DNA of 64,000 nucleotides from the IMG/VR virus record IMGVR_UViG_3300048574_000462, positions 1 to 64,000 of that record; one strand, 5' to 3'. Below the pieces are notes generated by a model. It saw only the letters and a program-made list of their open reading frames with translations, was not told the DNA's origin and did no database searches. Shown piece after piece: positions 27,938-53,018 of this stretch (the stretch's first letter is position 1; each line of letters begins with the position of its first letter). The DNA comes from a virus. The position numbers and the translations under genes are program-made.

Positions 27938-27988
27938 GCGTCGCCCGAAAGGCAGGCGCTATTCTTTTGCGCGGGAGGTGATACACGG

Positions 27989-28690
27989 ATGAACGACTGG
28001 TTTGAATGGAACGGCGAACGCTGCACGGCACATGGCATCCATATCACCGAGCAGCCCAGCGTGATCCGCGCCTCGGAGCGGGCGACGTTCACCAACGTAC
28101 CCGGCCGGAGCGGCTCGCTGACCACGCTGGAGGCCGACGATGTATACGACGATTTTATCCTGCCCGTGGAATGTGCCGTTGCCGACCTGAGCCGAATCTC
28201 TGAAATTGGCGGCTGGCTCAAGGGCGCGGGTACGCTGGCGCTGGCCTCCCGTCCGGGAGGCTTTTACTATGCCCGCGTCTCCAACCAGATCGAGTTCGTG
28301 AAGGTGCTGCGCAACCATCCCAACCGCACCTTCACGGTGAATTTCCGCTGCCAGCCCTTTTGGTACGTACAGGGTGTTTTGCCCATTACGCTGACAACCT
28401 CAGGCAGCGCCATTACAAACCTCGGCAACGTCTTTTCGGAGCCGGTGATCATCGTCTATGGCTCCGGCGACATCACGATCATGGTGGGGCTGTGCATCGT
28501 GGAGCTTGAGGGCATCTCCGGAAGCATCACGCTGGATACGCCGCTCATGGAGGCGTACTCCGGTACCACGTCCATGAACGACAACATGAGCGGCGATTTC
28601 CCAACGCTCGCACCGGGCATGAACGCCGTGAGCTGGTCGGGTACTGTGACCAAAATCGAGGTCCGTCCGAACTGGCGCTATCTCGGCTGA
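27989..28690 (+). CDS. Distal tail protein (Dit)
   Basis: F.WNG, VPGRSGSL, F.CQPF.Y, G.FP.L.PG.N, WRYL. Confidence 0.88.
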   Translation: MNDWFEWNGERCTAHGIHITEQPSVIRASERATFTNVPGRSGSLTTLEADDVYDDFILPVECAVADLSRISEIGGWLKGAGTLALASRPGGFYYARVSNQIEFVKVLRNHPNRTFTVNFRCQPFWYVQGVLPITLTTSGSAITNLGNVFSEPVIIVYGSGDITIMVGLCIVELEGISGSITLDTPLMEAYSGTTSMNDNMSGDFPTLAPGMNAVSWSGTVTKIEVRPNWRYLG

Positions 28691-28697
28691 AAGGAGA

Positions 28698-31697
28698 ATG
28701 CCGCGCATGATTTGTGCTTACCTCCCGGACTGCACCGACTTCTCCGGGAACGGCCTTGGCCCGGTCAATCCCTCGTCCTGTGCCGTAACGGAAACGCTAA
28801 ACGGGGAATGGGAGCTGGAGCTTACGCATCCGCTGGACGAGCAGGGCAAGTGGCACCGGTTGGTGGAGGGCAATATCCTCCGTGCGCCTGTGCCAGCCGC
28901 CATGACGCCACAGGTCAAGCTGTACGGCACGGGCAAGATGATCTACAAGGTTTCCACCAGCCGTGATCCGCTGCGGCTTCGATCCGGGACCGGGACAAAA
29001 TACAAAATCCTCGGCAGGTACAAAAAAGGTACCGAAGTCATCGTCCTGAGCACCGCCAATTCCTCGTGGTACGAGGTGTCCTGCCCGGATGGCAAACGTG
29101 GATACATGGCCTCGTCATATCTGACCTACGTGCGCACCGAGGCCACGCCGGGGCAGGCGGCAAAGGCGGTCATCGAATCCCGACAGCTACGGGACCAGCC
29201 GTTCCGCATCTACCGCGTGGTGCCGGAACTGACGAAGATCACGGTCTACGCCCGGCATGTGTTCTACGATTTGCTCGACAACATGATAAAGAGCTACAAG
29301 CCCGCCGTATCCACGGCGGGCTCCGTCGTGGCTCAAAACATATATTCAAAATGCCTGACCGAGCACGACTTCACCTTCTATTCCGATCTCACCTCCACCG
29401 CCGACGAGGTGGAATTTGAGAACGTCAACCCCGTGGACGCGATCCTGGGTGAAGGCGGCCTCGCGGAGAAGTACGGTGCGGAATTGGCGCGGGACTGGTA
29501 CGACGTTTTTCTGGTCCAACGGGTCGGCACTGATACTGATGTGCAAATCCGCGAAGGCAAGAACCTGCTGGGAATCTCCTACGACGTGGACATCACCGAT
29601 GTGGTCACGCGGATCATGCCCACCGGTGAAACCAAGGACGGCGAGGTCCTCTACCTGGACGAGCTGTTCAGGGACAGCCCGCACATCGGCGACTATCCGC
29701 ATCCGAAGTGGATTCATCTGGCGGTATCGGAGGCCAAGGTTTCCAAGGACCTGACCACGGCCCAAGCCAAGACAAAAATGCGGGCGGCCGTTCAGGCCGA
29801 GTACGACAAGGGATGCGACCTGCCGGCCGTGACGCTCAAGGTTGACTTCATCAACTGCGCGGAAACGGAGGAATATCGTCAGTACAAGGCGCTCCAGAAC
29901 ATCTTCCTGGGCGACGCCGTCCGGGTCATCGCACGGCGCATCGGCGTCGCGGTATCCATGCGGCTGACGCAGTACACCTACGACTGCCTGACGCGCAAGT
30001 ATACCGCCATGACCCTGGGCACCGTGGCGGATACGGTTGAGGGGAACATCATTTCCTCCCGCCAGTTGGCGTCCGGAAGCATTCCCGGCGCAAAGCTGAC
30101 GCTGAACAGCGTCGGCGCCGGCCAGCTTCAAAACGGCTCGGTGGGCAGCCTGCACATCGGGCTGGCGGCAATTCAGTCGGCGCACATCCAGGACGCCGCC
30201 ATCATCAACGCGCTCATTGAGGACGCGGCAATCACCAGGGCGAAGATCGCCCAGGCGACCATCGGCGAGCTGAACGCCGATGCTATCACGGCGGTTTCCG
30301 CCCGGATTCAGGAGCTTGTGGCCGGCGGCGTCACGACGGACGAGTTGTACGCCGCGCTGGCGACCATCGCCCTCGCACAGATCACCACCGCCAATATCGA
30401 GAACGCACACATCTCCTGGGCTGAGATCGGCACCCTGGCTGCCGAGATGGCGAATATCGCCGTGGCGCAGATCACCACCGTGAACATCAATCAAGCATCC
30501 ATCGATTGGGCGAACATCGTCAGCCTGAATACGGCCGTGGCGAACATCGCTCTGGCGCAGATCACCTCCGCAAATCTGGAGAGCGCACACATCGAATGGG
30601 CAAACATCGCGGACCTGAACGCCGCCGTCGCCCACATCGCCGTGGCGCAGCTCACCACCGCGCACCTGCACGAGGCGGAGATTGATTGGGCAGGCATCAC
30701 GGAGCTGAACGCCGCCATCGCGGACATCACCAGCGCCAGCATTGAAACCGCCGACATCAGTTGGGCGAACATCAAGGACCTGACCACCGGGACGGCGATC
30801 ATCGAGCGTGGTATCAACGGAAAGCTGTATGTCGCCGATCTCGCCGTCACCGAGGGCAATATCGCCTCCCTCACCGTTGGCGAGCTGATCGTGAAGGGTG
30901 CGGACGGCAGCTTTTACGCCGTTTCGGTCGATGAGGCCGGCGTTGTCACGACCACCAAAAAGGAAGTGACGGGCAGCGACATCGCCGACGCCAGCCTGCC
31001 GGGCGGGAAGCTGCTGGAGGATGCCATCACCGCGCGCGAGTTGAACGTGCAGAGCATTTTCGCGGACGAAGCGCTCATTCGCGCCATCAAAGCCGCTAAC
31101 CTTGACGTGGATGATCTGTTTACGCATACGGCCTTCATCGCCAGGCTCCAGGCGGTGGACATCACCGGCAACGAAGTATTGCGCCTGTACGTGGAGGGTG
31201 AGGTGTCCGCCGCGAAGGATGAGGCGCTGGATGCCGTGGGTGAAGCGGTGGCGCAGATCACCCTGACCGCCGACGCCATCCGCAGCGAGGTCCAGCGGGA
31301 TTACGCCACGACCGACGAAATGACGCAGGTGAACGAAACGTTGTCTACGCTGGCCGAGCAGACGGAGAACAATTTCACCTGGGCGGTCAGCAAGGTGACG
31401 GAAATCGAACAGGACATGGCGGAGGGGCAGGAAGCCACCGACGAGCAGATTGCGCTCATCAAAACCTATATGACCTTTGGGGATGACGGCCTGATCATCG
31501 GCAAGAGCGGCAACCCCATCACCATCCGGGTGGTCAATGACCGGGTGGCCTTCTATATGAACAACACCCAGGTCGCCTACCTGTCCAATAACAAGCTCTA
31601 TGTGACCCAGGCGGAAATCCTCACGCGGCTGCAGATCGGCAAATTCGCGTATGAACCGCAGGCAAACGGCAATCTGTCCGTCATCTACACCGGATAA
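28698..31697 (+). CDS. Tail tip/spike (Tal-like) protein with SH3b insert and 30-aa repeats
   Basis: E.LNGEWELEL..P, QPFRIY, GKNL.G, LGD.V; SH3b-like LRLRSG.GT.YKI...WYEV...GKRGYM.S.YL. Confidence 0.85.
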   Translation: MPRMICAYLPDCTDFSGNGLGPVNPSSCAVTETLNGEWELELTHPLDEQGKWHRLVEGNILRAPVPAAMTPQVKLYGTGKMIYKVSTSRDPLRLRSGTGTKYKILGRYKKGTEVIVLSTANSSWYEVSCPDGKRGYMASSYLTYVRTEATPGQAAKAVIESRQLRDQPFRIYRVVPELTKITVYARHVFYDLLDNMIKSYKPAVSTAGSVVAQNIYSKCLTEHDFTFYSDLTSTADEVEFENVNPVDAILGEGGLAEKYGAELARDWYDVFLVQRVGTDTDVQIREGKNLLGISYDVDITDVVTRIMPTGETKDGEVLYLDELFRDSPHIGDYPHPKWIHLAVSEAKVSKDLTTAQAKTKMRAAVQAEYDKGCDLPAVTLKVDFINCAETEEYRQYKALQNIFLGDAVRVIARRIGVAVSMRLTQYTYDCLTRKYTAMTLGTVADTVEGNIISSRQLASGSIPGAKLTLNSVGAGQLQNGSVGSLHIGLAAIQSAHIQDAAIINALIEDAAITRAKIAQATIGELNADAITAVSARIQELVAGGVTTDELYAALATIALAQITTANIENAHISWAEIGTLAAEMANIAVAQITTVNINQASIDWANIVSLNTAVANIALAQITSANLESAHIEWANIADLNAAVAHIAVAQLTTAHLHEAEIDWAGITELNAAIADITSASIETADISWANIKDLTTGTAIIERGINGKLYVADLAVTEGNIASLTVGELIVKGADGSFYAVSVDEAGVVTTTKKEVTGSDIADASLPGGKLLEDAITARELNVQSIFADEALIRAIKAANLDVDDLFTHTAFIARLQAVDITGNEVLRLYVEGEVSAAKDEALDAVGEAVAQITLTADAIRSEVQRDYATTDEMTQVNETLSTLAEQTENNFTWAVSKVTEIEQDMAEGQEATDEQIALIKTYMTFGDDGLIIGKSGNPITIRVVNDRVAFYMNNTQVAYLSNNKLYVTQAEILTRLQIGKFAYEPQANGNLSVIYTG
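30364..30785 (+). repeat. ~90-bp (30-aa) coding tandem repeat, about 4.5 units
   Basis: IA(L/V)AQITTANI..A.I.WA.I..L.A..A. repeated. Confidence 0.8.
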
Positions 31698-31703
31698 GGG
31701 GGC

Positions 31704-33737
31704 GTGACCATGGCAACGACCTTGAGCTTTTCCGCGTCCATGCGCACGCGGAAGACGAACTCGGCGAGCAACTACAAAAGCTCCGCCGCGTCCCAGGAGT
31801 TCTATACAAACGACTATAATTTTGTGGGCATCGTCCACTTCTCGGGCCTCTCGCTTTTGAACAAGGTGATCACCGGGATCTCGCTGCGCGTGACCTCTGC
31901 TGAGGCCGGGTTTGGCGCGGGCACCACCAAGACGGTGTACGTGCGGAAATCCAAGTATCAGGCGGCGTCACAGTCGGGCGTGACGGGCGGCGGCTACTAC
32001 GGCGACGCGCTGGGCACATTCGACGGCAGTTTCTACGGCAACACCACCAGCTATAACCTGACCGGCTCGCTGTTTGACAACCTCGCTGCCTACTTCCAGG
32101 CGGGGAACAACACCATCTGCTTGTTCAATCCCTCCCCGCAGTCGAGCAGTCAGGGCTACGCCCGAAACTACCTGCAATGGACGGCGGCGACGCTCACCGT
32201 CACCTATGAGGAAGGGATCAGCCAGCCCAGCACGTCGGCAACGACGGTCGATATGGGTACCGCCGTGACGATCAACACCAACCGTCAGAGCGGTTCCGCC
32301 ACCCATACGATTCTGTACGCTTTCGGCGGCGCCTCCGGCACCATCGCCACGGATATTGGTGATTCGGTGGCATGGACGCCGCCCATAACGCTGGCCGCGC
32401 AGATTCCCTCCGCCGTCTCGGGCCTGTGCACGATCACCTGTCAGACCTACTATTCCGGCGTGCTCACCGGCACCAAGACCTGCACGATCACGCTGAACGT
32501 TCCCGGCTCGGTCGTACCGGTCATATCCGGCTTGAACTATTCCGAGGCTGTGGCGGGCATCGCGGCGCAGTTCGCCGGCTACGTGCAGAACAAGAGCAAG
32601 CTCGCGGTTTCCATCACCGCCGCTGGGGCGCAAGGCAGTTCCATCACGGCGTACCGCGCCACGCTGGGCGGCAGCACCTATACGACTGCCTCGTTTACCA
32701 CCAACCTTCTGTCCGTCGCAGGGGACAATACGCTTTCGGTGACGGTGACGGATTCCCGTGGACGAACAGCCACCACTACCCGGACGATTACGGTGCTGAC
32801 GTACTCCCCACCGTCGTTGTCGCTGTTCAAGGCTGAGCGCTGCAACACGGCCGGAACAGCGCCACAGACAGACGGCACCAGGGTGCGGATTTCCGCGACC
32901 GCCAGCGCATCCTCAGTCAACGCCAAGAACACCATGAGCTGCATTGTGTACTATAAGCTGTCCGCCGCCTCCACATGGGCGCAGGCCACGACGATCACCC
33001 CCAGCAATTACGCGATTGCCTCGGTGAACCTGCTCTTATCGCAGACCTTTGACGCCTTGTCCAGCTTCGACCTGATGATCCGCATCACGGATTTCTTCCA
33101 CGCCGTGGAGCAGGCCGTGAGCATCGGCACCAAGCAGGTCATGATGGATTTCTACCGGAACGGCACCGGTATTGCTTTCGGCAAGGTAGCCGAGACTGCG
33201 GGCGCCGTGGAATTCGGCTGGCCATTGATTCTGGAAGCGCCGCTGGGCGTTCCCCAGGGCGGCACGGGCGCGGCAGGCGGACCGGCAGCGTGCGACAATC
33301 TCGGCGCGGTGAAAAAAGCGGGCGACACCATGACGGGCAACCTCTCCATTCAAAGCTCGCTGTACCCGTCCGTCTACCTGCTGCCCACCTACAACGGCAC
33401 GACCAACCGCACCGTGTTCGAAGGCAGTTATGTTGGCGCAAGCTCATTTGCCGCATGGGAGGACAGCACGGGAAACAATCGGCGGATGCTTGAGGTACGG
33501 ACGGCCGCCTACGCGCCCAGCATGGACAACGCCGTCCTCCTGCGCACGGCGGTTGGCGGCACGTTCTATGCTTTTCGTCTGTTCCATGCAGGTATGGCAA
33601 CGCCCGTCCCGGTGGGAAACGGCGGCACCGGCGCATCCGCCCCGAAGGCGGCGCTCAACAACCTGGGCATTTTCTATGCCGCTACGTTGCCGGCGAGCGG
33701 CACGGACGGCCAGATATGCCTCGTTCCGGTAGGATAA
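31704..33737 (+). CDS. Minor tail / receptor-binding protein (DUF859-like)
   Basis: Thr/Ser/Gly-rich beta protein; YVQNKSK, VTDSRGRT, G.G.AFGK.AE, V..GGTGA repeats. Confidence 0.8.
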   Translation: MTMATTLSFSASMRTRKTNSASNYKSSAASQEFYTNDYNFVGIVHFSGLSLLNKVITGISLRVTSAEAGFGAGTTKTVYVRKSKYQAASQSGVTGGGYYGDALGTFDGSFYGNTTSYNLTGSLFDNLAAYFQAGNNTICLFNPSPQSSSQGYARNYLQWTAATLTVTYEEGISQPSTSATTVDMGTAVTINTNRQSGSATHTILYAFGGASGTIATDIGDSVAWTPPITLAAQIPSAVSGLCTITCQTYYSGVLTGTKTCTITLNVPGSVVPVISGLNYSEAVAGIAAQFAGYVQNKSKLAVSITAAGAQGSSITAYRATLGGSTYTTASFTTNLLSVAGDNTLSVTVTDSRGRTATTTRTITVLTYSPPSLSLFKAERCNTAGTAPQTDGTRVRISATASASSVNAKNTMSCIVYYKLSAASTWAQATTITPSNYAIASVNLLLSQTFDALSSFDLMIRITDFFHAVEQAVSIGTKQVMMDFYRNGTGIAFGKVAETAGAVEFGWPLILEAPLGVPQGGTGAAGGPAACDNLGAVKKAGDTMTGNLSIQSSLYPSVYLLPTYNGTTNRTVFEGSYVGASSFAAWEDSTGNNRRMLEVRTAAYAPSMDNAVLLRTAVGGTFYAFRLFHAGMATPVPVGNGGTGASAPKAALNNLGIFYAATLPASGTDGQICLVPVG

Positions 33738-33749
33738 GGGGAAGGCTAC

Positions 33750-34409
33750 ATGAGCACTTTTACCGCCACCGCCAGCAGTGCCTCTACCATTGGTTACGCG
33801 CAGTATGGCAGCACAACCTGGAATACCGGCACCTCAAACGGCGCGAGCCAGGGTGCGTATCAGGCTACTACATCGTCAGGTTCCCGCGTTGGCGTTATGG
33901 TGTTCTCCGGTGCAGGCGCGGCATTGAACGGCAAGATCATCACTCAAATCACTCTCAGAATCACATGCTCCGCCGCTGGCTCATCCGCCAGCAATAAGGT
34001 GCTGTCCTTCCGTAAGGCCAACTATCAAACCCTGCAAACGGGCATTTCGGGTTCCGCTCAGGTGGGTACGGTGCTGGGCACGCTGACAGGCACCTTCTAC
34101 GACAATACCGTCACCCATACGCTGAACGCCACCACCAACGCCGCTCTGTTTGAGGCGATCCGGGCTTACCTCATCGCCGGCAACAGCGCATTGGTGCTCT
34201 ACAATGGCGAGACATCCACCGCCTCGGGCTACTCCACCAACTACGCCCGCGTGACCACATGCATCATCACAGTGACGTATGTGGACGCGACGGTCTGGTA
34301 CTTTAGCGGTACCGCCTGGACGCAATGCGCCGTGTGGTATTGCCTCAACGGGACATGGGTCCAATGCGTGCCCTGGTACAACTCAGGGGGCACATGGATT
34401 CGCGTCTGA
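33750..34409 (+). CDS. Minor tail protein paralogous to the N-terminus of the upstream fibre
   Basis: Shared L..K.IT.I.LR.T...AG and LGT..G.FY.NT...L motifs; C-terminal WY..GTW repeats. Confidence 0.7.
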   Translation: MSTFTATASSASTIGYAQYGSTTWNTGTSNGASQGAYQATTSSGSRVGVMVFSGAGAALNGKIITQITLRITCSAAGSSASNKVLSFRKANYQTLQTGISGSAQVGTVLGTLTGTFYDNTVTHTLNATTNAALFEAIRAYLIAGNSALVLYNGETSTASGYSTNYARVTTCIITVTYVDATVWYFSGTAWTQCAVWYCLNGTWVQCVPWYNSGGTWIRV

Positions 34410-34480
34410 TGTTCCAATTTCAAGCCGTCCGATGCCGGACGGCTTTTCATATACACAGAAATTCATGGGAGGGATTCATC

Positions 34481-34945
34481 ATGAAAGAAACCTTGGGAAC
34501 CGGCCTGACCGCCATTGGCGCGGGTATCGTGACCACGCTGTTGGGCGGCTGGGACCGGGCGCTGGAGATTCTGCTGATCGTCATCGTCCTGGACTACTTG
34601 ACCGGCGTGGCGTCGGCGTTCAAAAGCAAGACAGTCAGCTCCAGCGAGGGTTTTATGGGACTGGTCAAGAAGGCGAGCATTTTCCTCATCGTCATTCTGG
34701 CAGCGCAGATCGACCGGATCACCGGCAACACAGCGGCTATCTTTCGAACCTGCACGGCCTTCTTCTTCATCGCCAACGACGCCTTATCCATTCTGGAGAA
34801 TGTCGGCGAAATGGGCGTGAAGCTGCCCGCGTTCCTCAAGAACGCGCTGATCAAGCTGCGTGACGAGAACGACTTGCCGCCCGAACTTGGTGGCGGCAGT
34901 GATACCGAAAACAAGAACAAGACCGACCAGGGCGACGGCAAGTAA
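34481..34945 (+). CDS. Phage holin (family 4 / TcdE-like)
   Basis: GGWD..L..L.....LDY.TG, S..GF.GL.KK, N..LSILEN...GV.LP. Confidence 0.92.
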   Translation: MKETLGTGLTAIGAGIVTTLLGGWDRALEILLIVIVLDYLTGVASAFKSKTVSSSEGFMGLVKKASIFLIVILAAQIDRITGNTAAIFRTCTAFFFIANDALSILENVGEMGVKLPAFLKNALIKLRDENDLPPELGGGSDTENKNKTDQGDGK

Positions 34946-34976
34946 GCCGCCGCCCATTTTATAAGGAGGGAAACCC

Positions 34977-35831
34977 ATGGCTACGGAAACCAATCGCGCC
35001 TTGATCCCGCTCACAGGTGAGCACTTCGCCGCATGGTGCCTCAAGATGGTCGGCCAGCCCTATTGGTACGGGACCTGCGTGTACAAATGCACGGAGAGCC
35101 TCCGTTCCCGCAAGGCCGGGCAATATCCGTCCCACTACGGTTCGTCCCGCACCAGCCGATACCGGCAGGACATCGCCGCGAAGAAGGTGTGCGCCGACTG
35201 CATCGGCGGAGCAAAAGGGTATGCCTGGACCAATGGTGGTGTGGGCGTGCTGGAGAGCATCGGCACCGACAAGACGTTTACCAGCAAGACCGGCGCCAAC
35301 GGCTGTCCGGACCGCAGCGCCAACGGCATGTTCACCTACGCCAAGTCAAAGGGTATGGAGTGGGGAAAGATCGGGACGCTGCCGGAGATCGTCGGCCTCG
35401 CGCTCTGGAAGGATGGGCATGTGGGCTACTACGTCGGCAACGGCTACGCGGTCGAGTGGAAGGGCTACGCCTACGGCTGCGTCAAGACCAAGGTTGCGGG
35501 CCGGGGCTGGCAGAACTGGTACAAGCTCCCCTTCATCAAGTACGGGGAAGTGACGGTGCCAGAGAAGCCGGAAACGCCGGGCAATGGCGATGCGCCCAAG
35601 TACGACTTTGGGACGCGCCTGCTGCGTTACCGCAAGGGCCATACGATGCTCAAGGGCGACGATGTGCTGTCGGTCCAGGCGCGTCTGATCGAACTCGGCT
35701 TCGACCCCGGCAAGGCGGACGGTGCATATGGCCCGAAATCCACCGCTGCCGTGACCGCGTTCCAAGCCGCTCGTAAGATTGAGGCGGACGGCATTGTCGG
35801 CCCGATCACCCGCGCGGAGCTTGGGAGATAG
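34977..35831 (+). CDS. Endolysin: NlpC/P60-like Cys-His peptidase plus peptidoglycan-binding domain
   Basis: PYWYG, ADCIG, GHVGYYVG; C-terminal G.DV..VQ..L..LGF.PG..DG.YG..T..AV..FQ. Confidence 0.85.
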   Translation: MATETNRALIPLTGEHFAAWCLKMVGQPYWYGTCVYKCTESLRSRKAGQYPSHYGSSRTSRYRQDIAAKKVCADCIGGAKGYAWTNGGVGVLESIGTDKTFTSKTGANGCPDRSANGMFTYAKSKGMEWGKIGTLPEIVGLALWKDGHVGYYVGNGYAVEWKGYAYGCVKTKVAGRGWQNWYKLPFIKYGEVTVPEKPETPGNGDAPKYDFGTRLLRYRKGHTMLKGDDVLSVQARLIELGFDPGKADGAYGPKSTAAVTAFQAARKIEADGIVGPITRAELGR

Positions 35832-35981: not shown

Positions 35982-36407
35982 ATGAAACAGGCTCTTGTTT
36001 ACGCAAGGTGTGCCGGCCCTTCCGACAATGCAATCCACCTCCAGCAGAGCGCGTGCCAAACCTTCGCGGAACAAAACGGATTCTCCGTTTCGGACGTCAT
36101 CGTCGAAAGCGGCGTGGCAGGCCGCGTCAACGGCCAGCGAGACGGCCTTAATCTGTTGCTCAGAATGGCAAGCGCGCACCGATTTGATGCTTTGGTCCTG
36201 AGTTCCATCAACCGCATTTCTCGCAACCTCCATGAAGCCTTCGCCTTTCTGGATGCGGTCGCCGAGTGTGGCGTCGAGATATGGAGCGTACAAGAAGGCA
36301 ATTATACCGAGTGGCGCACCGGCTATGTGGCGCAGATACAGAAAATCTTCGCGGATTTCCTGCGGGAAGGCGCGGAAGATGCGAAGATGCAAGCGATAGG
36401 AGAGTAA
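35982..36407 (+). CDS. Small resolvase-fold protein (catalytic domain only, divergent)
   Basis: LVYARCA (no YARVS serine), QQ..C..FA, E.GV.G....R.GL, SINRISRN. Confidence 0.7.
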   Translation: MKQALVYARCAGPSDNAIHLQQSACQTFAEQNGFSVSDVIVESGVAGRVNGQRDGLNLLLRMASAHRFDALVLSSINRISRNLHEAFAFLDAVAECGVEIWSVQEGNYTEWRTGYVAQIQKIFADFLREGAEDAKMQAIGE

Positions 36408-37164: not shown

Positions 37165-38463
37165 ATGGCCCGAATCATACGGAAAATGAACCCGGTACTG
37201 CCGCTGCCGCCACGGATGCTGAATGTCGCGGCCTATGCGCGGGTATCGCTGGACAAGGATTCCATGCTGCACTCGCTGTCCGCGCAGGTAAGCTATTACA
37301 GCGACCGCATTCAGAAGAACCCCGGCTGGCGGTACGCGGGCGTGTATGCGGACAAAGCGCTCACCGGTACCAAGGCCGAGCGCCCGGAATTCCAGCGGCT
37401 GCTGGCCGACTGCCGGGCCGGGAAGATCGACATGGTGATTACCAAGAGCATCAGCCGGTTTGCCCGCAATACGGTGACGCTGCTGGAAACGGTTCGTGAA
37501 TTGAAAGCGCTGGGCGTGGACGTCTACTTTGAAGAACAGAATATCCACTCCATGAGCGGGGATGGCGAGCTGATGCTTACCATCCTCGCTTCCTATGCGC
37601 AGGAAGAAAGCCGCTCGGTATCTGAAAACTGCACATGGCGCATTCGCAAGAAATTCGAGGCGGGCATTCCAACGACCGTGCAGATTCTCGGATACAAAGT
37701 CCATCGGGGTACTTTCACGATCATCCCGGAGGAAGCGGACATCGTCCGAATGATCTTCGTGGACTATCTTGGCGGCATGGGACGTAACGCAATTTACCGG
37801 AAAATCGTTGCGCTGGACATTCCCACAAAGACCGGGCGGAATTGGTGCGAAGCCACCATTGACGAAATCCTCCGAAACGAGAAGTATGTCGGCGACCTGC
37901 TGTTGCAGAAATACTTCCGCGAAGATCATCTGGCCAAGAAAGACCGAAGGAATCGTGGCGAGCTTCCGCAATATTATGTCCGCGATCATCACGAGGCGAT
38001 CATCGCCCGCGCAGACTTCGCCCGCGTTCAGGAAATGCTCAAGGAGCGCGGCGAGTATTTCCACCCTTATGAGTATCAGCCCACGGATTACCAGTTCAAG
38101 GGGAAGCTCGTCTGCGGGAATTGCGGCAAGGCTTACAACCGCAAAACGACGCTGGGCAGGGTTTCATGGCAATGCTCCACATTCTTGCGGCTGGGCAAAG
38201 CATATTGCCACGCCAAGCAGATTCCCGAGGATACGCTGATGGAGATCACGGCTTCGGTACTCGGCCTGCGCGTGTTCGACGCGGCTGCATTCAAAAGCCG
38301 GATTCGGGAAATCCGCGTTCCGGCGTTCAACCATCTCACCTATGTGTTCGATGACGGCACCGAAGAAACGCGCGTGTGGCAGGACAAATCCCGGCGTGAT
38401 AGCTGGGACGATTCTATGCGCCAGCAGGCGGCGGAGCACGCGAGAAGGAGATATGAAAAATGA
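37165..38463 (+). CDS. Large serine recombinase
   Basis: AAYARVS, ITKSISRFARN, AQEESRS.SEN, L.NEKY.GD, CGNCG Zn ribbon. Confidence 0.95.
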   Translation: MARIIRKMNPVLPLPPRMLNVAAYARVSLDKDSMLHSLSAQVSYYSDRIQKNPGWRYAGVYADKALTGTKAERPEFQRLLADCRAGKIDMVITKSISRFARNTVTLLETVRELKALGVDVYFEEQNIHSMSGDGELMLTILASYAQEESRSVSENCTWRIRKKFEAGIPTTVQILGYKVHRGTFTIIPEEADIVRMIFVDYLGGMGRNAIYRKIVALDIPTKTGRNWCEATIDEILRNEKYVGDLLLQKYFREDHLAKKDRRNRGELPQYYVRDHHEAIIARADFARVQEMLKERGEYFHPYEYQPTDYQFKGKLVCGNCGKAYNRKTTLGRVSWQCSTFLRLGKAYCHAKQIPEDTLMEITASVLGLRVFDAAAFKSRIREIRVPAFNHLTYVFDDGTEETRVWQDKSRRDSWDDSMRQQAAEHARRRYEK

Positions 38464-38693
38464 GCGAGGCAAGAGCATACGCGCCCAGGGTGACGATGAC
38501 GCCCGCCACACTGAACCGCTTTACGGCTATGCCGATCAACGGAACGAAGAAGCGCCGCGTGGCGGCCTATGCCCGTGTATCCACCGACAATGAAGAACAA
38601 AAGACCAGCTACGAGGCGCAGGTGGACTACTATACGCAGTACATCCACTCCAAATCCGAGTGGGAATTCGTCAAGGTTTATACCGACGAATAG
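38460..38693 (+). pseudogene. Second large serine recombinase, 5' fragment truncated at YTDE*
   Basis: RVAAYARVSTD.EEQ.TSYEAQVDYY...WEFVKVYTDE then TAG; composition and strand switch immediately after. Confidence 0.88.
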
Positions 38694-38712
38694 ACGTCTT
38701 ATCCGGAACAAA

Positions 38713-39450
38713 TTACACAACATTAAATGGCGGCATAGCTTGCACAATTTTACCATCAAGGAGCTTACCGTTAGCTTTTTTGCTTCGCTTAATCCCATCA
38801 GGTCCCCACGTCCCCCATTGTTTAAAAAAGAATGGTATGTTTCTATCATTGGCCTGGGCTTGTATTGACATAACCCATTCCGGGCTCATAGGACGTGCTT
38901 GAACGCCACTTTCACCTCCAACAATGATCCAGTTGATATCCGATAAATCAAGTCTGCCTAAGTCCTCTAGAAGAGGTTCGCAAGATAAAAAACGAACAGA
39001 CGATTTTACATTTCTAAGAATGTCAATTCTTGACTTAGCCTCTACATCCTCTACTGTAACGCCTAACCAGACATTGGATGGCACAGTATTATTTCCAAAA
39101 TACTCAGCCATTCTTCCGGCGCGTTTTGTAAGTATCTGATAACGATGGTGTGTGGCTTTCTGAATTGTATCCATTACTCTATCGATAAACGAAAAAGGGA
39201 CAGATTCATGGAACAAGTCTGCCATTGAACAAACAAAAATCGTATGCGGAGCTTTCCAACTAATCGGCTCATCAAGAGCATCTTCGTGGACCGTCGGCAA
39301 AAAGCCATTTGAATATTTCTCGACCCCCATTGCCTTAAGCCGATTGGCCATTATCTCAGCGTAACAATGCACGCATCCCGCCGATATCTTTGTGCAACCA
39401 GTGACGGGGTTCCATGTTCTTTCTGTCCATTCAATCTTCGTTACGCTCAT
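38713..39450 (-). CDS. DUF5131 / phage Gp37-Gp68 family three-Cys protein
   Basis: IEWT..TWNPVTGCTKIS.GC.HCYA, F..SM.DLFH, QILTKR, FLSCEPLL, WIIVGGESG, FFFKQWG. Confidence 0.92.
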   Translation of the reverse strand: MSVTKIEWTERTWNPVTGCTKISAGCVHCYAEIMANRLKAMGVEKYSNGFLPTVHEDALDEPISWKAPHTIFVCSMADLFHESVPFSFIDRVMDTIQKATHHRYQILTKRAGRMAEYFGNNTVPSNVWLGVTVEDVEAKSRIDILRNVKSSVRFLSCEPLLEDLGRLDLSDINWIIVGGESGVQARPMSPEWVMSIQAQANDRNIPFFFKQWGTWGPDGIKRSKKANGKLLDGKIVQAMPPFNVV

Positions 39451-40037
39451 TTTATATCTCCAAACGTAATTCGCATTTTATCAGAAAAAGTACCTTTCTT
39501 CGGCTGCTTATCTGTTGTTGGATCTTTCGCCACAACTTTCCCTTCACCATATAGTTTCATAAGAACATCCTTATAATTCTTCTTAATGTATGGCCTATCA
39601 ACACTATGCTCTTCGTACAGGCGCATAAAATCGATCGTTTTACCCGCGTACTCCGATAAAAGCATGCCGCTCAATTTTTCTAACGGCGTAGATAATAAAT
39701 CAAATATAGAGCCTTGCCTGAAATGAGCATATCGTGGATTGTATTCAAATGTTGAGACGCATTCGTTATTTTCGGAACATTCCTTATGCATAATTCCTTT
39801 CATAATATCGTATCCTAGGAAGTTTTTGCTCAAGAATATTAAATGATGACTTGTTCGAGTTCCACTATCATTACGAAATCTAAACGGCAAAACAAAACGG
39901 CTCCCATTCTGACGCAACGAGTCGCATAACGCCTGCACAACAATCATTTCCCGTTCGTCTGGTGTTTTGCCGAAGCACTCTTGTTGAAGCGTGCCTAGAC
40001 GCTCTTCACCAAACAAAGAAACCATATGAGTCCTTAT
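39447..40037 (-). pseudogene. tcmP: tcmP 3' fragment (downstream of IS)
   Basis: In-frame continuation ..IRTHMVSLFG.. once the IS and one TSD copy are removed; YVLPF-like FVLPFRF, HLIF.SKN..G..IMK. Confidence 0.8.
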
Positions 40038-41484
40038 GAGCTTGTCCCAAGCGGCGTGGAATTTGAGGAAGGAGGAACGAAGAAAAAAGGCGACAACACC
40101 GTCAGAATCTGTTATTCTATAGCTGACAACACAAGAAAACAGATAGGGAGGAATTGTCACCATGAGTATAGTATACCGCAAGAATTCCGGGAGCGTCAAG
40201 GGAGCAATTGGGTTAATTGATTACGAACTGATCGAAGCAAAGGCAAGCGAGGGATTGCTGAGAGTATCGGTCGAGATAGGACTGGAAGTAGTTCGACAGA
40301 TGATGGAGACAGACGTAACCGAACTGGTTGGCAGCAAAGGGAAACACAATCCCGGGCGAACGGCGTATCGGCACGGCTGGGATGAGAGCAAGGTCGTATT
40401 GGGGAGCGAAAAAGTATCTGTAAGACGCCCGCGAGTACGCGGGACGGACGGAACAGAAATGCCGATCAAGAGTTTGGGACTATTTCAAACAGACGATCCA
40501 ATGAATGACGCGATACTGTCGAGGTTGCTCAGTGGGGTGAGCACGCGAAAACTGTGCAGAACGACGGATGAACTCGTGGATGATCCTGCTTGCGTCAGCA
40601 AAAGCGAAGTGAGCCGGCGATTCAGAAGCGGCATGGAAAAGGCAATGGCTGAGTTCTTCGGGAGGCGGATCGAGGGCAGCATGCCAATCATGATGTTGGA
40701 CGGTATGGGGCTTGGAGATATGACAATCGTAGCTGCGATGGGGATCGACGAGGAAGGGCACAAGCATATGCTGGGCTTGACGGAAGGCGGAACGGAAAAC
40801 AGCGAGGTGGTGAGTGCGTTGTTGAACGACATGATTTTGCGGGGTTTGGACGCGCAGGAACCGCGGCTATATGTTCTTGACGGCGGGAAAGCGCTGAGCA
40901 AAGCCGTCAAAGATACGTTTGGGAAAAAGGCCGTGGTACAGCGCTGTCAGGTGCACAAGAAACGGAACGTGCTGGCGCATCTACCGAAATCGGAGCAAGA
41001 GAACGTAAGCAAGCGACTGACGATGGCATATCGGGAATTTGATTACGAGAAAGCTAATTCGAGCCTTGAACTTCTGGCGAAAGAGATGGATCTGCGTTAT
41101 CCAAAGGCATCGGATAGCCTGCGTGAAGGACTGGAGGAAACGCTGACCGTGCATCGGTTGCGCGTCCCCGGCTTACTGCGAGAGACGTTATCGAGTACAA
41201 ACGCGATGGAATCGGCGAATTCCGTTTGCGCCGGTGTTCTCCGCCGCGTAACCAATTTCAAGCATGGCGGGACGACGCTTCGGCATGCCGCAGCCGGGTT
41301 CATGGAGGCCGAGCGCAGCTTTCACAGAGTGAGGGGCTATAAGCAGATTCCTTCACTGAAAATGAATCTGGCTCGATTGACAGAAACTGGGGATTGGTCT
41401 ATACTGGGCGTAGCTTGATGGGAGACGGGTTGCTTTGGTGTCGCCATGCCTCTTATCAAATTCCACGGAGTCTGGGACAGGCTC
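40038..41484 (+). mobile_element. IS256-family insertion sequence
   Basis: Imperfect terminal IRs (GAGCTTGTCCCA..CGTGGAATTTGA vs GAGCCTGTCCCA..CGTGGAATTTGA) and 9-bp TSD AGTCCTTAT at 40029-40037 and 41485-41493. Confidence 0.93.
40162..41418 (+). CDS. IS256-family (mutator-type) transposase
   Basis: YRHG, RPRVR, GVSTR, MLDG, G.K..LG, LDG.K.L, QRCQVHK.RN, STN.MES.N. Confidence 0.93.
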   Translation: MSIVYRKNSGSVKGAIGLIDYELIEAKASEGLLRVSVEIGLEVVRQMMETDVTELVGSKGKHNPGRTAYRHGWDESKVVLGSEKVSVRRPRVRGTDGTEMPIKSLGLFQTDDPMNDAILSRLLSGVSTRKLCRTTDELVDDPACVSKSEVSRRFRSGMEKAMAEFFGRRIEGSMPIMMLDGMGLGDMTIVAAMGIDEEGHKHMLGLTEGGTENSEVVSALLNDMILRGLDAQEPRLYVLDGGKALSKAVKDTFGKKAVVQRCQVHKKRNVLAHLPKSEQENVSKRLTMAYREFDYEKANSSLELLAKEMDLRYPKASDSLREGLEETLTVHRLRVPGLLRETLSSTNAMESANSVCAGVLRRVTNFKHGGTTLRHAAAGFMEAERSFHRVRGYKQIPSLKMNLARLTETGDWSILGVA

Positions 41485-42048
41485 AGTCCTTATAGCATCA
41501 TTATTGACACCCATGTTCACGCGATTATAGTTAAAGAAAAACACACAATCACATCCCCAATCTTTGATAATCGAGGACACTAAGTTGAGCGAAAGCCCTT
41601 TATACCCCCACGGATCGACAAAGAAAAATGCTGGGACGAGCTTTATTCGACTAAACATTTCAGCAATTTCGTCTCCAACCTCTTCATTATAGAACGCTGG
41701 AAGGTACTTGAGCCTTTCTATGCCGGGGAGTTGACTTATTGAAGTTTTGAGGCTCTCAATATTTGCTAGATCCTTATCATTAAACCACGTAATTATTCTT
41801 CCTGAAAGTTCAGGGCTGCTGAGGATGGTTTCTAAAACCAACAAGGGAGTGGATTTGCTCTGATCATCATATCTGCCTGGCCCTGCAAACAAATCAATAT
41901 ACGCCATTCTTTGGACGTGCTGAGGATACTTCTTCTGTGTGGCAAGTATTACTTTTGCCCATGCATCAAAGTACTTCGCAACAATTCTAGCCTTTATCAT
42001 TGATTGTTCGCGCTGTTCCTGAAAAAAGTTGTTAGCCACACGTGTCAC
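41485..42048 (-). pseudogene. tcmP: Three-Cys-motif partner protein TcmP, 5' fragment
   Basis: S..K..I..KY..AW, YIDLFAGPG, FFFVDPWGYKG; cotranscribed upstream of DUF5131. Confidence 0.85.
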
Positions 42049-42255: not shown

Positions 42256-45060
42256 TCAGAAAATACCATCTGTTTCTAAAATATGGTCTAGCTCGTCGTT
42301 ATTCTGCGCTTTCAGCACCTTGTCACGAACAGCCCCATGCGACAGATCAAGACGCTTGAAACGCGTTTTTCCTGCGGCATCCTTTCCTGTGCGAATCAAC
42401 TGCACGCGTCCAATGCAAGGCTCGTTTTCGGCATACTTAGCAAAGCCCTTCGCCTTGCCGAGATTATCCTTGAATTCCGGGTTGTGTGGTTCGAGGATGT
42501 CCACGACGTAGTTCAGTTCTGGATCGCCTCGAATAATCAGGAAATCGGGATATGTGGCCTTCACTTCGCCGTTGATCTCATACGGAATGCACAGCGACCA
42601 CGATACGCGAGGCGGATTCCGCAGCCAGCACACGAAGTCAGGCCGCTTTTCCTCTTCGGCGATCAGGTCATCTTCCCAACCGTTCAGTTTGATAATGGCA
42701 ACTCCATTTTCGTCTGCGAACAGATGATTATCGTATTCTTTACCGTCTTTTTCATTCTTCACGCTGATTGTCTCCGGCAGGGTGAAGCTATGCTTACTGA
42801 TCACATCACCGTCCGCGATGATGTCGCTGTACTGCTTCCGGCACTTTTCGGATTTACCAACGATATACTTGCGATACTTATCATTGAGACCATGGAATTT
42901 CTTCTCCGCGTAGCGGTTCATTGTGGCGATGCAGTCATCGTCTGCAGCGAAAAGGATGCAGTCGATTTTATAGGCGGAGGGATCGTCCTCGTTGAAATAT
43001 TGCTGCCCATAGCAATTCGGGAAGCCATAACCGCTCATCCGGGCATCTGCAGCGCGAAGCTGACGATCCAGATCGCTCTCGGAGGCAGCCAAGAAGCCCT
43101 GCGCCATACCGTTGTCCAGAGATTCGCCGAACACGTCAAAAACGCGAACAGATAGCTTGAAGGACAGCACCTGACTGGCTAATTCTTTATACTTTCCCGT
43201 ATAACGCAGCTCCTCTGCGTAATGGCGGATCATATCCACAACATCGGCCTTAACCTCATCAGTCGCAGCCGGGAAGATGGCTTCGCGCGTCAGCAGACTG
43301 GCAAGGTTCAGTAGGGACTTCATATAGTTATTGATCTTTACTGAGCGCACCATATATGTCAGCAGGGATTGATCGTTGATGAACTTCGTAATCGCTTCCC
43401 GGTCGATGCCTGCACCCGCCATGCGCGTCTGAACACCGGCAGGAGATGTTTCTGTGCGCGCGGAGGTGGGCTTGACGGGAACTGTCAGAGTCGGCTCGGT
43501 CTGCGGATGCACAGGATTAGGCACATACGGTTCCTCTGTATGGTGAACCGGCGCATCTCCTGACAGCCTGTTTTGTCCTAGCTGTGTGGCGGGCTGAATA
43601 GGCGTCACAGCACAAGTTGTCAAGTTGGAGAAACTAATCTGACCAGGAACCTGTTGCGCTTCCCTGTGGTGCTGCGTATGCACTGTCCACGACACATACA
43701 CCTGCTGTTCCAGCGATTCCCCATCGATTACAGTCGGAATATCGCCACCTTCAGTGCTTTGCAGCTCATCAATGACGGACTTTACCGTATTCTGGTTGAA
43801 ATACGGTAGGTACAACCGCACATCGTTCAGCGAATCATCAACGAGGATATGGCATTGCAGCGGAGTGCGCACCATGCGCCCAAGAAGCTGCGCAATATAG
43901 GTGGCATCCTCTGCATGACGGAAGGACATCATCGTTTCGGCACGAGGGCAATCCCAGCCCGTGGAGAGGTTCTCCTTGAACAGCACCACACGGATGCGCT
44001 TGTCCTCGGAAATCTCAGAAGGCTCGATGCGCTCCACCTGCAAACCGTTGATGGTCAGCGCAGGCGTAGAGCCAAAGGTGTGCACCACTTCATGTTCGCG
44101 GAAGCGTGTGCCGAGGCGCTCCTCGACCTTTGCAATGACATCATCGAGTTTCGTGTCGGACACAGCTTTGCCGCTGCCTGCAAGCACCTGAATCAGGAAG
44201 ATAGGGTTCACCTGCGCATAGTGTTGTTCATAGGAATACTGATACCAATGCTCGCACTTCTTGCGCCATTCGTCCGTGGCCGCCTGCAAGAGCGCCATTT
44301 CGTTGTTCCGCTGCGGATCGTCCGGGTAGGTGATGACGATGCGATCCTTCAGCAAGCCGGAAGTGCGCACATCATTTGCCGAGACGATGCACTTCTGTAG
44401 GGTGGAGGTGGTGTCGCCGACCAGCTTGTTGAAGCGCTCCGCCGTAGCACTGATGCCAATAACCACGGGCATGGGTGGCAGCTTCACTTCCGGGCTTCCC
44501 TTTAGAAAGCGCTGCATGATGGAGGTGGCCTTCCCGGCCTCGCGTCCTTGTGCGCCACGATGCGCTTCATCGATGAGGAAATAGAGCCGGTCGCTCTTTT
44601 CCCGTACGGTGTTTGCTAGCGTTTCCCAGATAGTGTACTGCCGGGTGTCGGAGTGCTTTCCCAGATTCCCAGCCTTGCCGAGCTTCTGCGTGTTGAGGAA
44701 GTAAATATGCCCGTCATCCAGCATCTCCATGTCGAAGGACTCGTCCTCAATGGTGACACACTGCCCAAAGCGAATCTTATCCGCCTTCAGGTCGAATTTC
44801 TGCTTTGACTGTGCATTAAGCTCAGGAGAATCTGACAACCAGACGAAAATTGCCTCTGGCTGCTCGGTAAACTGCTCGGTTCCGAAGTATATGTCCTCTA
44901 CGAGCGCAGCCATGATAATGGTTTTGCCGGAGCCGGTCGGCGCCTGCAGAGAAACCACCTGCGGAATGTGAGTGCGATGATAGCTGCCCAGTGCTTCTGC
45001 AAGTTTTATGCGCAGGTCGGTAACTGCCTTTTTCTGAAATGGAAATAATTCAACCCTCAT
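42256..45060 (-). CDS. res: Type III-like restriction helicase/endonuclease subunit
   Basis: APTGSGKT, DEAH, SAT, L.TGWDCP, Q..GR..R, C-terminal YPDF...ILEPH. Confidence 0.85.
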   Translation of the reverse strand: MRVELFPFQKKAVTDLRIKLAEALGSYHRTHIPQVVSLQAPTGSGKTIIMAALVEDIYFGTEQFTEQPEAIFVWLSDSPELNAQSKQKFDLKADKIRFGQCVTIEDESFDMEMLDDGHIYFLNTQKLGKAGNLGKHSDTRQYTIWETLANTVREKSDRLYFLIDEAHRGAQGREAGKATSIMQRFLKGSPEVKLPPMPVVIGISATAERFNKLVGDTTSTLQKCIVSANDVRTSGLLKDRIVITYPDDPQRNNEMALLQAATDEWRKKCEHWYQYSYEQHYAQVNPIFLIQVLAGSGKAVSDTKLDDVIAKVEERLGTRFREHEVVHTFGSTPALTINGLQVERIEPSEISEDKRIRVVLFKENLSTGWDCPRAETMMSFRHAEDATYIAQLLGRMVRTPLQCHILVDDSLNDVRLYLPYFNQNTVKSVIDELQSTEGGDIPTVIDGESLEQQVYVSWTVHTQHHREAQQVPGQISFSNLTTCAVTPIQPATQLGQNRLSGDAPVHHTEEPYVPNPVHPQTEPTLTVPVKPTSARTETSPAGVQTRMAGAGIDREAITKFINDQSLLTYMVRSVKINNYMKSLLNLASLLTREAIFPAATDEVKADVVDMIRHYAEELRYTGKYKELASQVLSFKLSVRVFDVFGESLDNGMAQGFLAASESDLDRQLRAADARMSGYGFPNCYGQQYFNEDDPSAYKIDCILFAADDDCIATMNRYAEKKFHGLNDKYRKYIVGKSEKCRKQYSDIIADGDVISKHSFTLPETISVKNEKDGKEYDNHLFADENGVAIIKLNGWEDDLIAEEEKRPDFVCWLRNPPRVSWSLCIPYEINGEVKATYPDFLIIRGDPELNYVVDILEPHNPEFKDNLGKAKGFAKYAENEPCIGRVQLIRTGKDAAGKTRFKRLDLSHGAVRDKVLKAQNNDELDHILETDGIF

Positions 45061-45062
45061 TG

Positions 45063-47150
45063 TCAGTTCCTCCCTGTATTGATTCTAAAATTATCAAAGT
45101 AATCGCGATAAAGCTGGAAGGTGTGCGGCGCATTCAGGTTTTTCGCCATGGCGCAGTATCCGGCTTCATAATCGGTGACAATGTACACCGTTTGGATTTC
45201 GGGGAGAGCATTGACCTGTTCCGCAAAATCGCTGAAGGCGGATTCCACCGTCAGTACGGCAAAGCGGTTTTCAGGCAACACCAGCATGGTGGGCGTTTCT
45301 CTATCTTCCAGCGTGGGGCATGCCCCGTGCGCACCGGCTTTCATCCACAGCGTCGGCAGCATCTCCTTGAACTGACGACCCAGTGCAATACTGGTCTTGT
45401 TCAAGAAGCTCAGCTTGAAGAAGGCAGCGTTCGCCTTGAAGCCGTCCGCCATGGGAATCTCGCTGCCGATGTATTCGCCCTTGAGCGGCTGACCGTTCAC
45501 ATCATGGCCTACGATGGAACAGACTGTGCGAGGCCATGTGACGTAACGAGCAATGCCGAGTCTTTCCCATTCGGGATCGCCGGGGTGATAGCCCTGTGCC
45601 GTCAGCGACTTGGCTTCATTGTCGGACACCTCGTTGTTTGTCACCATGATGCATCGACGATGCCCGCCGTCCTCGGCATTGAGAAGGTTGACGGCATGAA
45701 GGGTTGTGCCAGAACCGGCAAAAAAGTCGATGATTAATGCACACGGTTTTTCTTTTACAAAAAAACGAATTGCATCTTCCACTGCATACAAAGACTTCGG
45801 AAAGGCAAACCGTCTACCCGGTATCAATGAGCCAATTATGTTGGTTCCATATGCGCCAGCTTCATGAGCCGTCATGTTCCACTGGGTTTTAGGCGCTGTT
45901 GTTTTTGAATCGTCTACATAAACAACTTCCAGAGAACCATTGGCATCTCGCCCAATTACTTTAATAGTTCCGTCTTCAATCTGTTTCAGTTGATTGTTCG
46001 TAAGGTAGGATATAGAAGCCCCCTTACCTTTCGTAGGTTTTCCAAATTTAACAGCTCCGATTTCATAAAGCTTGCGAAAGGTTGACGGAACCATTCCCCA
46101 ACTATACTCTTCACCATCTCGTACAGGAGGCCAAATTTCATAAGTGCCTTCTGGAGCAACCGGAATATTTTCTCCTTCGTAAACCGCATTTCCAACAGAA
46201 TGAAAAGAGTCATCGCTGCAGTTAAAATAAACAGGATACCATGAACCAGGATTAACTGGCCGCAACCCTTTTCGCCCCGTTCGAGGAAAGCCACGCCATC
46301 TTACATTTGTGTCTTGAGACACATCTTGGGTTAGCATATCACTTCCTGTTCGGGACAAAGTATAATTGCCTATCATTACGAAATATATAAACTCGTTTAC
46401 TCGGCTAAATTCATTAGTCCGAGCTGTTCCCTTTGGGTTAATAATGCTTGATATCATTTGTATTTTTGCATCTGGGAATAATTCCTCCAGCAAGCATCCA
46501 AGATGCAGATACTCTTTTTCATCAATGGTCACGATCAGCACAGAATCCTTCGGGTTCAGTAGCTTCTTGGCGATCTTAAGCCGTTTTTGCATCATTGACA
46601 GCCATTTGCTGTGGCGATAGGTGTCGTTGCCATCTACATAGTCATTGTTGTACTTCCAGTCTCTTGCACCGGTATTGTACGGCGGATCGATATAGATGCA
46701 GTCCACCTTTCCGGCATAGAGGTATTCTAGGAACTGTAGGGCATGGTAGTTGTCCGCTTCGATCAGCACATGCCACAGGTCGCTGTCGGGCGCGTTGCAC
46801 ACGGTGTCGATGGGCTTGAGGTGCGGATAGATCGGCTCACCGAATTCAGCCACGGATACCAGATCCGCCACAGGAAACGATACAGACTCCCCGCCCGCTT
46901 TCGGTAAACAGATCGCCTGACCATCGGCTAGCCTTAGCACAACATAATTGTCGCTCATCTTGCCGGTTTTAAGCGCAACCAAGCTTCCCTTGTTCACGGG
47001 AACATCATACAACGGGGCGCATTCGGGGAGATGCTCTTCAAAAACCAGGCCGAATTTTTTCTGCTTGTTCATACGGTCTACTTCCCGCTGAATGCGCTCT
47101 CGCAGTTCAGGGTTATCAATTTGGTTGATCAGATCATTGATTGCAGCCAT
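45063..47150 (-). CDS. mod: Type III-like N6-adenine DNA methyltransferase (beta class)
   Basis: IYIDPPYNTG, HSKWLS.M..RL, FPKS, DFFAGSGTT. Confidence 0.92.
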   Translation of the reverse strand: MAAINDLINQIDNPELRERIQREVDRMNKQKKFGLVFEEHLPECAPLYDVPVNKGSLVALKTGKMSDNYVVLRLADGQAICLPKAGGESVSFPVADLVSVAEFGEPIYPHLKPIDTVCNAPDSDLWHVLIEADNYHALQFLEYLYAGKVDCIYIDPPYNTGARDWKYNNDYVDGNDTYRHSKWLSMMQKRLKIAKKLLNPKDSVLIVTIDEKEYLHLGCLLEELFPDAKIQMISSIINPKGTARTNEFSRVNEFIYFVMIGNYTLSRTGSDMLTQDVSQDTNVRWRGFPRTGRKGLRPVNPGSWYPVYFNCSDDSFHSVGNAVYEGENIPVAPEGTYEIWPPVRDGEEYSWGMVPSTFRKLYEIGAVKFGKPTKGKGASISYLTNNQLKQIEDGTIKVIGRDANGSLEVVYVDDSKTTAPKTQWNMTAHEAGAYGTNIIGSLIPGRRFAFPKSLYAVEDAIRFFVKEKPCALIIDFFAGSGTTLHAVNLLNAEDGGHRRCIMVTNNEVSDNEAKSLTAQGYHPGDPEWERLGIARYVTWPRTVCSIVGHDVNGQPLKGEYIGSEIPMADGFKANAAFFKLSFLNKTSIALGRQFKEMLPTLWMKAGAHGACPTLEDRETPTMLVLPENRFAVLTVESAFSDFAEQVNALPEIQTVYIVTDYEAGYCAMAKNLNAPHTFQLYRDYFDNFRINTGRN

Positions 47151-49532: not shown

Positions 49533-49542
49533 AATTTTCGAG

Positions 49543-49572
49543 AAGGTGGACGAGGCACGTCCACCTTTTTTG
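49543..49572 (+). terminator. Perfect hairpin plus T run; also operator-like palindrome
   Basis: AAGGTGGACG-AGGCA-CGTCCACCTT-TTTTT. Confidence 0.7.
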
Positions 49573-49596
49573 CCATAAATTCGCATTTCCATTCTG

Positions 49597-49643
49597 AAAG
49601 CCCGGTAGAGACTTCACTCGTGGAGTTTTTACCGGGCTTTTTT
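49597..49643 (+). terminator. Long hairpin plus T run
   Basis: AAAGCCCGGTAGAGACTTCAC-TC-GTGGAGTTTTTACCGGGCTTT-TTT. Confidence 0.65.
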
Positions 49644-52416: not shown

Positions 52417-52418
52417 TC

Positions 52419-52964: not shown

Positions 52965-53018
52965 ACGACTGACCGGAGCGGGCGGCGGAGCGATCTGCCG
53001 CCCTGTTTCCTTTGAGGT

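Follow-up and report, generated by a model that had tools for sequence, protein, structure and literature searches.

A temperate siphophage probably integrated site-specifically into the serine recombinase gene of a neighbouring prophage

The window analysed here is the first 64 kb (64,000 nt) of the 96,661-bp IMG/VR virus record IMGVR_UViG_3300048574_000462, and in this record two temperate siphophages that are related to each other stand in tandem. Genes for terminase, portal and tape measure are present in both, the major head protein was scored for prophage 2 only, and parts of the structural genes of the two are 72-78% identical at the nucleotide level. A domain search showed that prophage 1 carries a recombinase module made up of sr1, an HTH protein, sr2 and a truncated sr3 (Table 1). 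The first of these genes is conserved in the relatives L001, L002 and L005, and sr2 is 43-45% identical to intact sr3 homologues.

What follows, which we call element 2 or prophage 2, looks like a complete prophage; it extends from 38687 to beyond the end of the record and exceeds 58 kb. The IS256-family insertion that splits its TcmP-like gene is absent from L003, where the gene is intact (381 aa), and a contig from run X4 reads through the site. The lysis genes are followed by the integrase gene int2, about 1 kb before the record's end, and the record terminates in a fragment of an IS256-like transposase. When the record (L173) is compared with L175, identity rises from about 90% within int2 to 99.8% right after the int2 stop codon (record positions 95645-96661), which suggests that a cargo segment including the IS256-like fragment may have been shared recently.

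Table 1 Features of the two prophages, of the junction between them, and of related loci in other genomes
Feature	Position	Strand	Description
Prophage 1 body	1..35831	+	helicase, DNA polymerase, primase, terminase, portal, tape measure, holin, endolysin; left end cut by the record
sr1	35982..36407	+	small, resolvase catalytic domain only (Pfam Resolvase 5.7e-18); first recombinase of the module
sr2	37165..38463	+	intact large serine recombinase: Resolvase, Recombinase, Zn_ribbon_recom
sr3N	38460..38693	+	77-codon 5' fragment of the third large serine recombinase gene of prophage 1; ...KVYTDE then TAG
B arm of putative hybrid site attL	38661..38684	+	encodes WEFVKVYT; equals run X1 contig through 38686; aligned with intact alleles
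GA, putative crossover dinucleotide	38685..38686	+	first two bases of the Asp codon; X1 and X2 contigs match to 38686
P' arm of putative element 2 attP	38687..38709	+	CGAATAGACG + TCTTATCCGGAAC; source of the TAG stop and of the SGTN mimic
DUF5131 gene	38713..39450	-	first cargo gene of element 2; Pfam 2.8e-105
TcmP-like partner of DUF5131 (GMT-wHTH)	39447..42048	-	split by IS256-family insertion at ~40038-41484
IS256-family transposase	40162-41418	+	inside the TcmP-like gene
Type III-like restriction (ResIII helicase) and DNA methylase genes	42256..47150	-	defence cargo
HTH regulator (636 aa) and sigma-like protein	47622..50746	+	start of element 2 early region
Prophage 2 replication module	51277..64000	+	
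terL	69118 of record		prophage 2, past the window
Portal gene	72371 of record		prophage 2, past the window
Major head protein gene	74305 of record		prophage 2, past the window
Lysis genes	91.3-93.6 kb of record		prophage 2, past the window
int2	94015-95637 of record		540-aa large serine integrase: Resolvase, Recombinase, Zn_ribbon_recom, DUF4368 (TnpX/TndX type)
Conserved-end loci	L074/L119, L099, L118, L121, L123, L130, L135, L136, L151, L164		
Example conserved-end fusions	L135:4873-4900; L118:13601-13630; L074:7699-7730		

The break in sr3 is as a first-pass annotation, made from the letters of the window, had described it. The gene was said to end at YTDE followed by a stop, and its 77-aa ORF does end in KVYTDE and TAG, covering positions 1-40 only of the 145-position Pfam Resolvase model in a Pfam search. 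Such recombinases were expected to continue GISGT(N), which agrees with the reading ...VYTDEGIS(A/G)TNTKK... found in most relatives, and the out-of-frame SGTN that had been noted past the break was found as TCC GGA ACA AAT at 38702-38713, 11 nt (38691-38701) after GAA. The reported switch of composition and coding strand is equally real: GC content falls from 0.56-0.58 to 0.42-0.45 across about 200 bp, the genes from 38713-39450 onward lie on the minus strand, and 19 nt separate the stop codon of sr3N from that of the minus-strand DUF5131 gene.

To place this break among related genes we compared the 77-aa fragment with its 80 closest relatives in IMG/VR. The majority of these best 80 encode proteins of 517-533 aa, and three, in the IMG/VR records L002, L003 and L004, are cut at the same codon as in the window. 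The sr3N fragments of L003 and L004 are about 80% identical in amino acids to that of the window, with many silent differences, while right after the junction both records are the same as the window (94-99% nucleotide identity over at least 25 kb, without IS256) and their P' arm is identical to it. In L002 the left side is phage-1-like (81-85% nucleotide identity), and the right side consists of other cargo and, after it, a replication module with 84% identity to that of the window; the outer motif of the arm is shared, and in both junction types, that of the window and that of L002, TCTTATCCGGAAC starts exactly 10 nt past the GA of the Asp codon. The slot by the att arm in L002 (6430-12202) thus has defence cargo of another kind, with genes for a protein with a SIR2 domain, one with a Piwi domain (short Argonaute-like) and the R subunit of a type I restriction enzyme.

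Public sequencing runs added a contig from X3, in which a diverged sr3N is joined to the same DUF5131 end. In a contig from X4, which aligns at window position 38684, the DUF5131 end is represented by a relative with 90% identity, and its 27-nt left flank differs (...CATGAACTGCATGA); this flank may be either an attP arm or a further target. Except in X4, the readable left flanks (window, L002, L003/L004, X3) all break at the same sr3-type codon. An exact-word scan for the sr3N allele of the window itself returned no match.

These recurrences bear on the explanation that the 5' end of sr3 was joined to unrelated DNA by accident, whether through random deletion, through a rearrangement mediated by an IS or through chimeric assembly. 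An IS256 copy lies 1.3 kb from the junction, another IS fragment closes the record, and the record lacks the 3' half of the gene, all of which would fit such an accident. The same junction is present, however, in at least four independent assemblies, and since it recurs with diverged left flanks we regard this explanation as refuted and give it next to no credence; moreover, a second type of element is joined at the same dinucleotide, and in L003 the junction is unchanged without IS256.

The proposed comparison with intact copies of the gene proved informative. An intact 525-aa sr3 is present in L001, L005 and L086-L088, with 83-90% amino acid identity over the first 77 residues (88-90% in L086-L088, which are three MAG contigs). 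In L088 the intact gene is followed after 117 bp by RpiR, ROK kinase, GH95 and ABC permease genes, and because these host sugar genes follow it, sr3 is here both whole and the last phage gene of an integrated prophage. A 4,922-nt contig from run X1 (depth 96) has no mismatch to the window over 37558-38686, continues past 38686 with 3.8 kb unlike the window, and leaves window positions 38765-41000 with zero cover in that run, which is without element 2; the match of a contig from run X2 also ends at 38686, so that identity ends at the GA dinucleotide. X1 probably carries an intact sr3, and its contig is consistent with an unoccupied attB in related genomes.

Intact sr3 often precedes variable cargo-like genes. 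In two MAGs (L086/L087, 11.6-20 kb; L086:14769-16739, minus), the region downstream of it has genes that look defence-like, encoding GmrSD, proteins of the HATPase_c_3 and radical SAM-like types and DUF6551, as well as a further large serine recombinase gene that runs in the opposite direction.

The junction by itself is silent on which partner moved, and prophage 1 might have split its own integrase gene, with its attP lying inside sr3 as in the archaeal viruses of SSV type, by integrating beside the DUF5131 gene. The variable genes that often come after intact sr3 would fit such an origin, which places the 3' half of sr3 at the far left end of prophage 1, and this end is missing from the record. 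A self-partitioned integrase of the SSV type is, however, whole in the free form alone and always split in the provirus, whereas in L088 the integrated sr3 is intact and ends a prophage remnant bordered by host sugar-utilisation genes. Because sr3 is whole in that integrated prophage, we consider self-splitting by prophage 1 effectively ruled out, with a very low remaining probability, and three further observations given below (complete proviruses, a mirror arm and the geometry of the sites) also count against it.

If prophage 2 was instead the incoming partner, the 3' half of sr3 should lie at its other end. The first-pass annotation had placed this remainder, beginning GISGT and next to another recombinase cluster, beyond the 64 kb of the window; it is absent from the 96.7-kb record, but a remainder of the expected kind adjoins a relative of int2 elsewhere. 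Searches of the whole record by tblastn with the intact sr3 of L001 and L005 found no 3' half, and a source-like metagenome contig adds 690 nt only, still within the IS256-like gene and without a right junction. The window's own right junction is therefore missing because both the record and the source contig end in that gene. In G001-G003, tblastn for the 3' half matched sr2 paralogues only, and its absence from the provirus records G001 and G002, both rated 100% complete, speaks against the self-splitting of sr3. An inverted-repeat search of the record for the P arm was empty, and IMG/VR pattern scans for P arm, GA and B' returned only L198, plus chance matches.

An int2 homologue with 67% identity is found in L176/L198, and in L198 it is followed by a MORN-repeat cargo gene, GTACCAGATAAGA, 10 nt, GA and TGAGGGCAT..., where an open frame of 491 codons starts with DEGISGT and has no catalytic serine region upstream. 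The P arm lies 2.5 kb from the integrase of that locus and was seen only in this 67% relative. Its reverse complement matches the P' arm of the window at 16 of 23 positions in register, the two arms coming from two related elements; the chance of such a match is about 1e-5 (binomial estimate), and both arms have equal 10-nt spacers to the GA. The spacing from GA to the outer motif is thus 10 nt in the window, L002 and L198. Since this mirror arm lies on the int2 side, it is a further argument against prophage 1 having cut its own gene. From the two arms, an attP of about 48 bp is predicted, composed of a GTTCCGGATAAGA-like outer motif, N10, GA, N10 and TCTTATCCGGAAC. The attL sites (window, L002), the attR of L198 and intact attB have only GA(Y)GA(R) in common, with no long direct repeat. 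Separately, the minus strand of L232 (~5303-5360) has an isolated short stretch encoding DEGISAT with unrelated sequence on both sides, which may be the scar of a recombinase attB.

For large serine integrases, the motif bound by the zinc ribbon domain takes up bp 16-24 in an attP half-site, whereas in attB it takes up bp 11-19 (PMC3783163; Rutherford et al. 2013). The corresponding motif of the window, TATCCGGAAC, occupies 10 nt at arm positions 14-23. When it was slid along the downstream arm in a set of 107 intact sr3-like alleles, all of them distinct, the best agreement was obtained at a 5-bp inward shift, with a mean of 6.7 of 10 positions, while every other shift gave at most 3.7 of 10. 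Against the target arm of L198, the only target that was observed together with a related integrase, the same 5-bp inward shift gave 9 of 10. The 5-bp rule holds on the B' side (at +5 only), and the B side is without a clear motif. From this shift it follows that element 2 carries attP and sr3 carries attB. The out-of-frame SGTN is the zinc-ribbon motif of attP, the same offset between attP and attB explains why it stands 11 nt out in the hybrid site and 6 nt out in the gene, and the SGTN mimicry is more than chance. The predicted symmetric site is built like an attP, with its outer motif at 14-23, and the sr3 site like an attB, which again argues against self-splitting.

The domain set of int2 (Resolvase, Recombinase, Zn ribbon and DUF4368) is shared with TndX of Tn5397 and TnpX of Tn4451, a likeness drawn by domains. 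Integrases with DUF4368 are mostly multi-targeting (10.1101/2021.11.05.467528); TndX, like the sr3 site, uses a central GA dinucleotide, in some hosts requires scarcely more than this, and favours DNA encoding the conserved Fic domain, proposed as a widely available target (PMC4430133). Unlike element 2, TndX and TnpX belong to transposons and not to phages, and the target is a host Fic-domain gene. A tblastn search of a phage collection with int2 found only relatives of up to 44% identity, and no free phage with an intact attP of this type. In 401 genomes sampled from one order, six had seven int2 homologues between them (45-47% identity), with no recombinase fragment within 1.5 kb of any of the seven.

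The element could instead have entered by loose, transposition-like insertion, sr3 being one preferred site among many for a multi-targeting recombinase of the TnpX/TndX type. DUF4368 is the mark of that clade, the modest needs of TndX fit, and so does the different left flank in the X4 contig. The breaks at one sr3-type codon in the window, L002, L003/L004 and X3, together with the right junction of L198, point the other way, as does a match to attB which is specific and lies in the expected register; we judge this possibility unlikely, though less so than the two others.

Taken together, we consider it highly probable that prophage 2 integrated into sr3 of prophage 1 by attP x attB recombination, a reading that includes int2 as the catalyst and the further inferred parts set out below. 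The proposal of the first-pass annotation, a hybrid att site left by an element that targets recombinase genes, is thus upheld by the recurrent break, the empty sites, the L198 junction and the att geometry. The module sr1-sr2-sr3 closes prophage 1, with sr3 normally as its last gene, and in this model the crossover would occur at the GA of the Asp codon, within the conserved catalytic-domain motif Y-T-D-E-G-I-S. The outer motif of the predicted attP recurs in the coding sequence of sr3 5 bp nearer the centre, an offset by which serine integrases distinguish attB from attP. The recombination was presumably catalysed by int2, and the 3' part of the gene (sr3C) and the attR of prophage 1 itself should lie just past the end of the record. 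The 77-aa product is probably inactive, so prophage 1 would be without sr3 until prophage 2 excises. Loss of sr3 may block excision of prophage 1, resulting in ordered excision or in parasitism of one prophage by the other, and the strongly conserved integrase motif would offer a portable, host-neutral landing site.

Other elements were found at recombinase genes as well. Relatives of int2 with 56% identity (L177, L178, L181 and L184) lie 70-190 bp upstream of recombinase remainders which start at residue ~291 (SHEAII), at GA again (in L178 at 9696-10400 and in L184 at 9775-9909). SHEAII looks like a second target motif of the int2 integrase clade. In G004, which has an element of the SHEAII class, no N-terminal fragment was found.

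A profile scan of all loci collected here revealed about ten from Clostridia, mostly Lachnospiraceae, in which in-frame fusions join many unrelated 3' recombinase remainders to one conserved element end (...ATTGTATCAAAGAC, 12 nt, GA). The fusions occur at three motifs (VYxD|xG, GKID|L and SHPxIE), and the 12 inner bases of the conserved end mimic the target motif every time. In one locus, L151, an intact sr3-like gene is followed at a distance of about 165 bp by an unrecombined, dyad-symmetric attP-like site (ATTGTATCAAAG...GA...CTTCGATACAAT; 11753-11810), and a second, recombined copy of the site lies at 17932. In four genomes with such fusions there are 29-65 resolvase-domain matches each (Pfam Resolvase), several of which lack the first 26-39 model positions. 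Arrays of a ~22-nt tandem repeat (AAAAATCRYGGRGTATRG) stand just within the element, ~30-200 bp upstream of the conserved end, in L123, L130, L135, L136 and L151, and may be binding sites for an accessory protein.

Because related elements insert likewise elsewhere, we propose that integrase genes are landing pads for other mobile elements. In its general form, with serine-recombinase genes as a common landing pad in Clostridia for at least two integrase lineages, nested chains of elements and an inner element in control of the recombinase of the outer one, the proposal is one that we favour only slightly over its negation. The lineages would be the int2/DUF4368-type phages and the sr3-type triplet elements of Lachnospiraceae; crossovers would take place at GA inside the motifs xVYxD|xG, GKID|L and SH(P/E)xI(I/E), and the inner attP arms would copy the target coding sequence. 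Such insertions would impose a hierarchy of excision, and possibly shuffle the 5' ends of recombinases.

Our literature search, whose coverage was incomplete, brought to light no account of a serine recombinase gene as an integration target, and the novelty of the finding is provisional for this reason. The closest parallels are SPbeta in spsM and skin in sigK ('active lysogeny'), where a large serine integrase likewise puts a prophage inside a coding sequence (PMC5499854, PMC5025042). There, as here, the gene is left as two dead halves that are rebuilt by precise excision only, and the att sites are short, with no long direct repeats; the difference is that the interrupted gene is here the serine recombinase of another prophage, so no link to host development is expected. 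Helper-embedded satellites (HE-PICI) resemble the present case in that conserved genes of resident prophages are the recurrent targets of an integrase clade, giving nested elements, and in that the interrupted phage gene is unusable until the inner element leaves (PMC10111431). They are, however, satellites of ~11 kb that lack a full set of virion genes of their own, with tyrosine integrases and late-gene targets (capsid, portal, tail), whereas here a serine integrase, an integrase-gene target and a full-size inner phage with terminase, portal, head, tape measure and lysis genes are involved. Streptococcal IMEs also integrate site-specifically in genes of other mobile elements, namely ICEs, and the serine recombinase triplets of ICEs resemble the sr1-sr3 module (PMC7168690, PMC4701971); among the papers that the search listed, and in contrast to what is seen here, no recombinase gene was seen named as a target.

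If integrase genes are indeed regular att sites, the att pairs described here, which are short, have a GA core and are aimed at a coding motif under strong conservation, become candidates for orthogonal sites in integrase tools, and sr3 provides a natural case in which the 5-bp attP/attB rule can be tested. A phage could then lysogenise any host with a suitable prophage, with no host gene needed or damaged. The incoming phage would disarm part of the resident's recombination module and set the order of excision, so that prophages would compete with or depend on each other in a new way. In the Clostridia of the gut and of digesters, tandem or polylysogenic arrays may then be nested instead of lying side by side, which would change how the borders of prophages are called.
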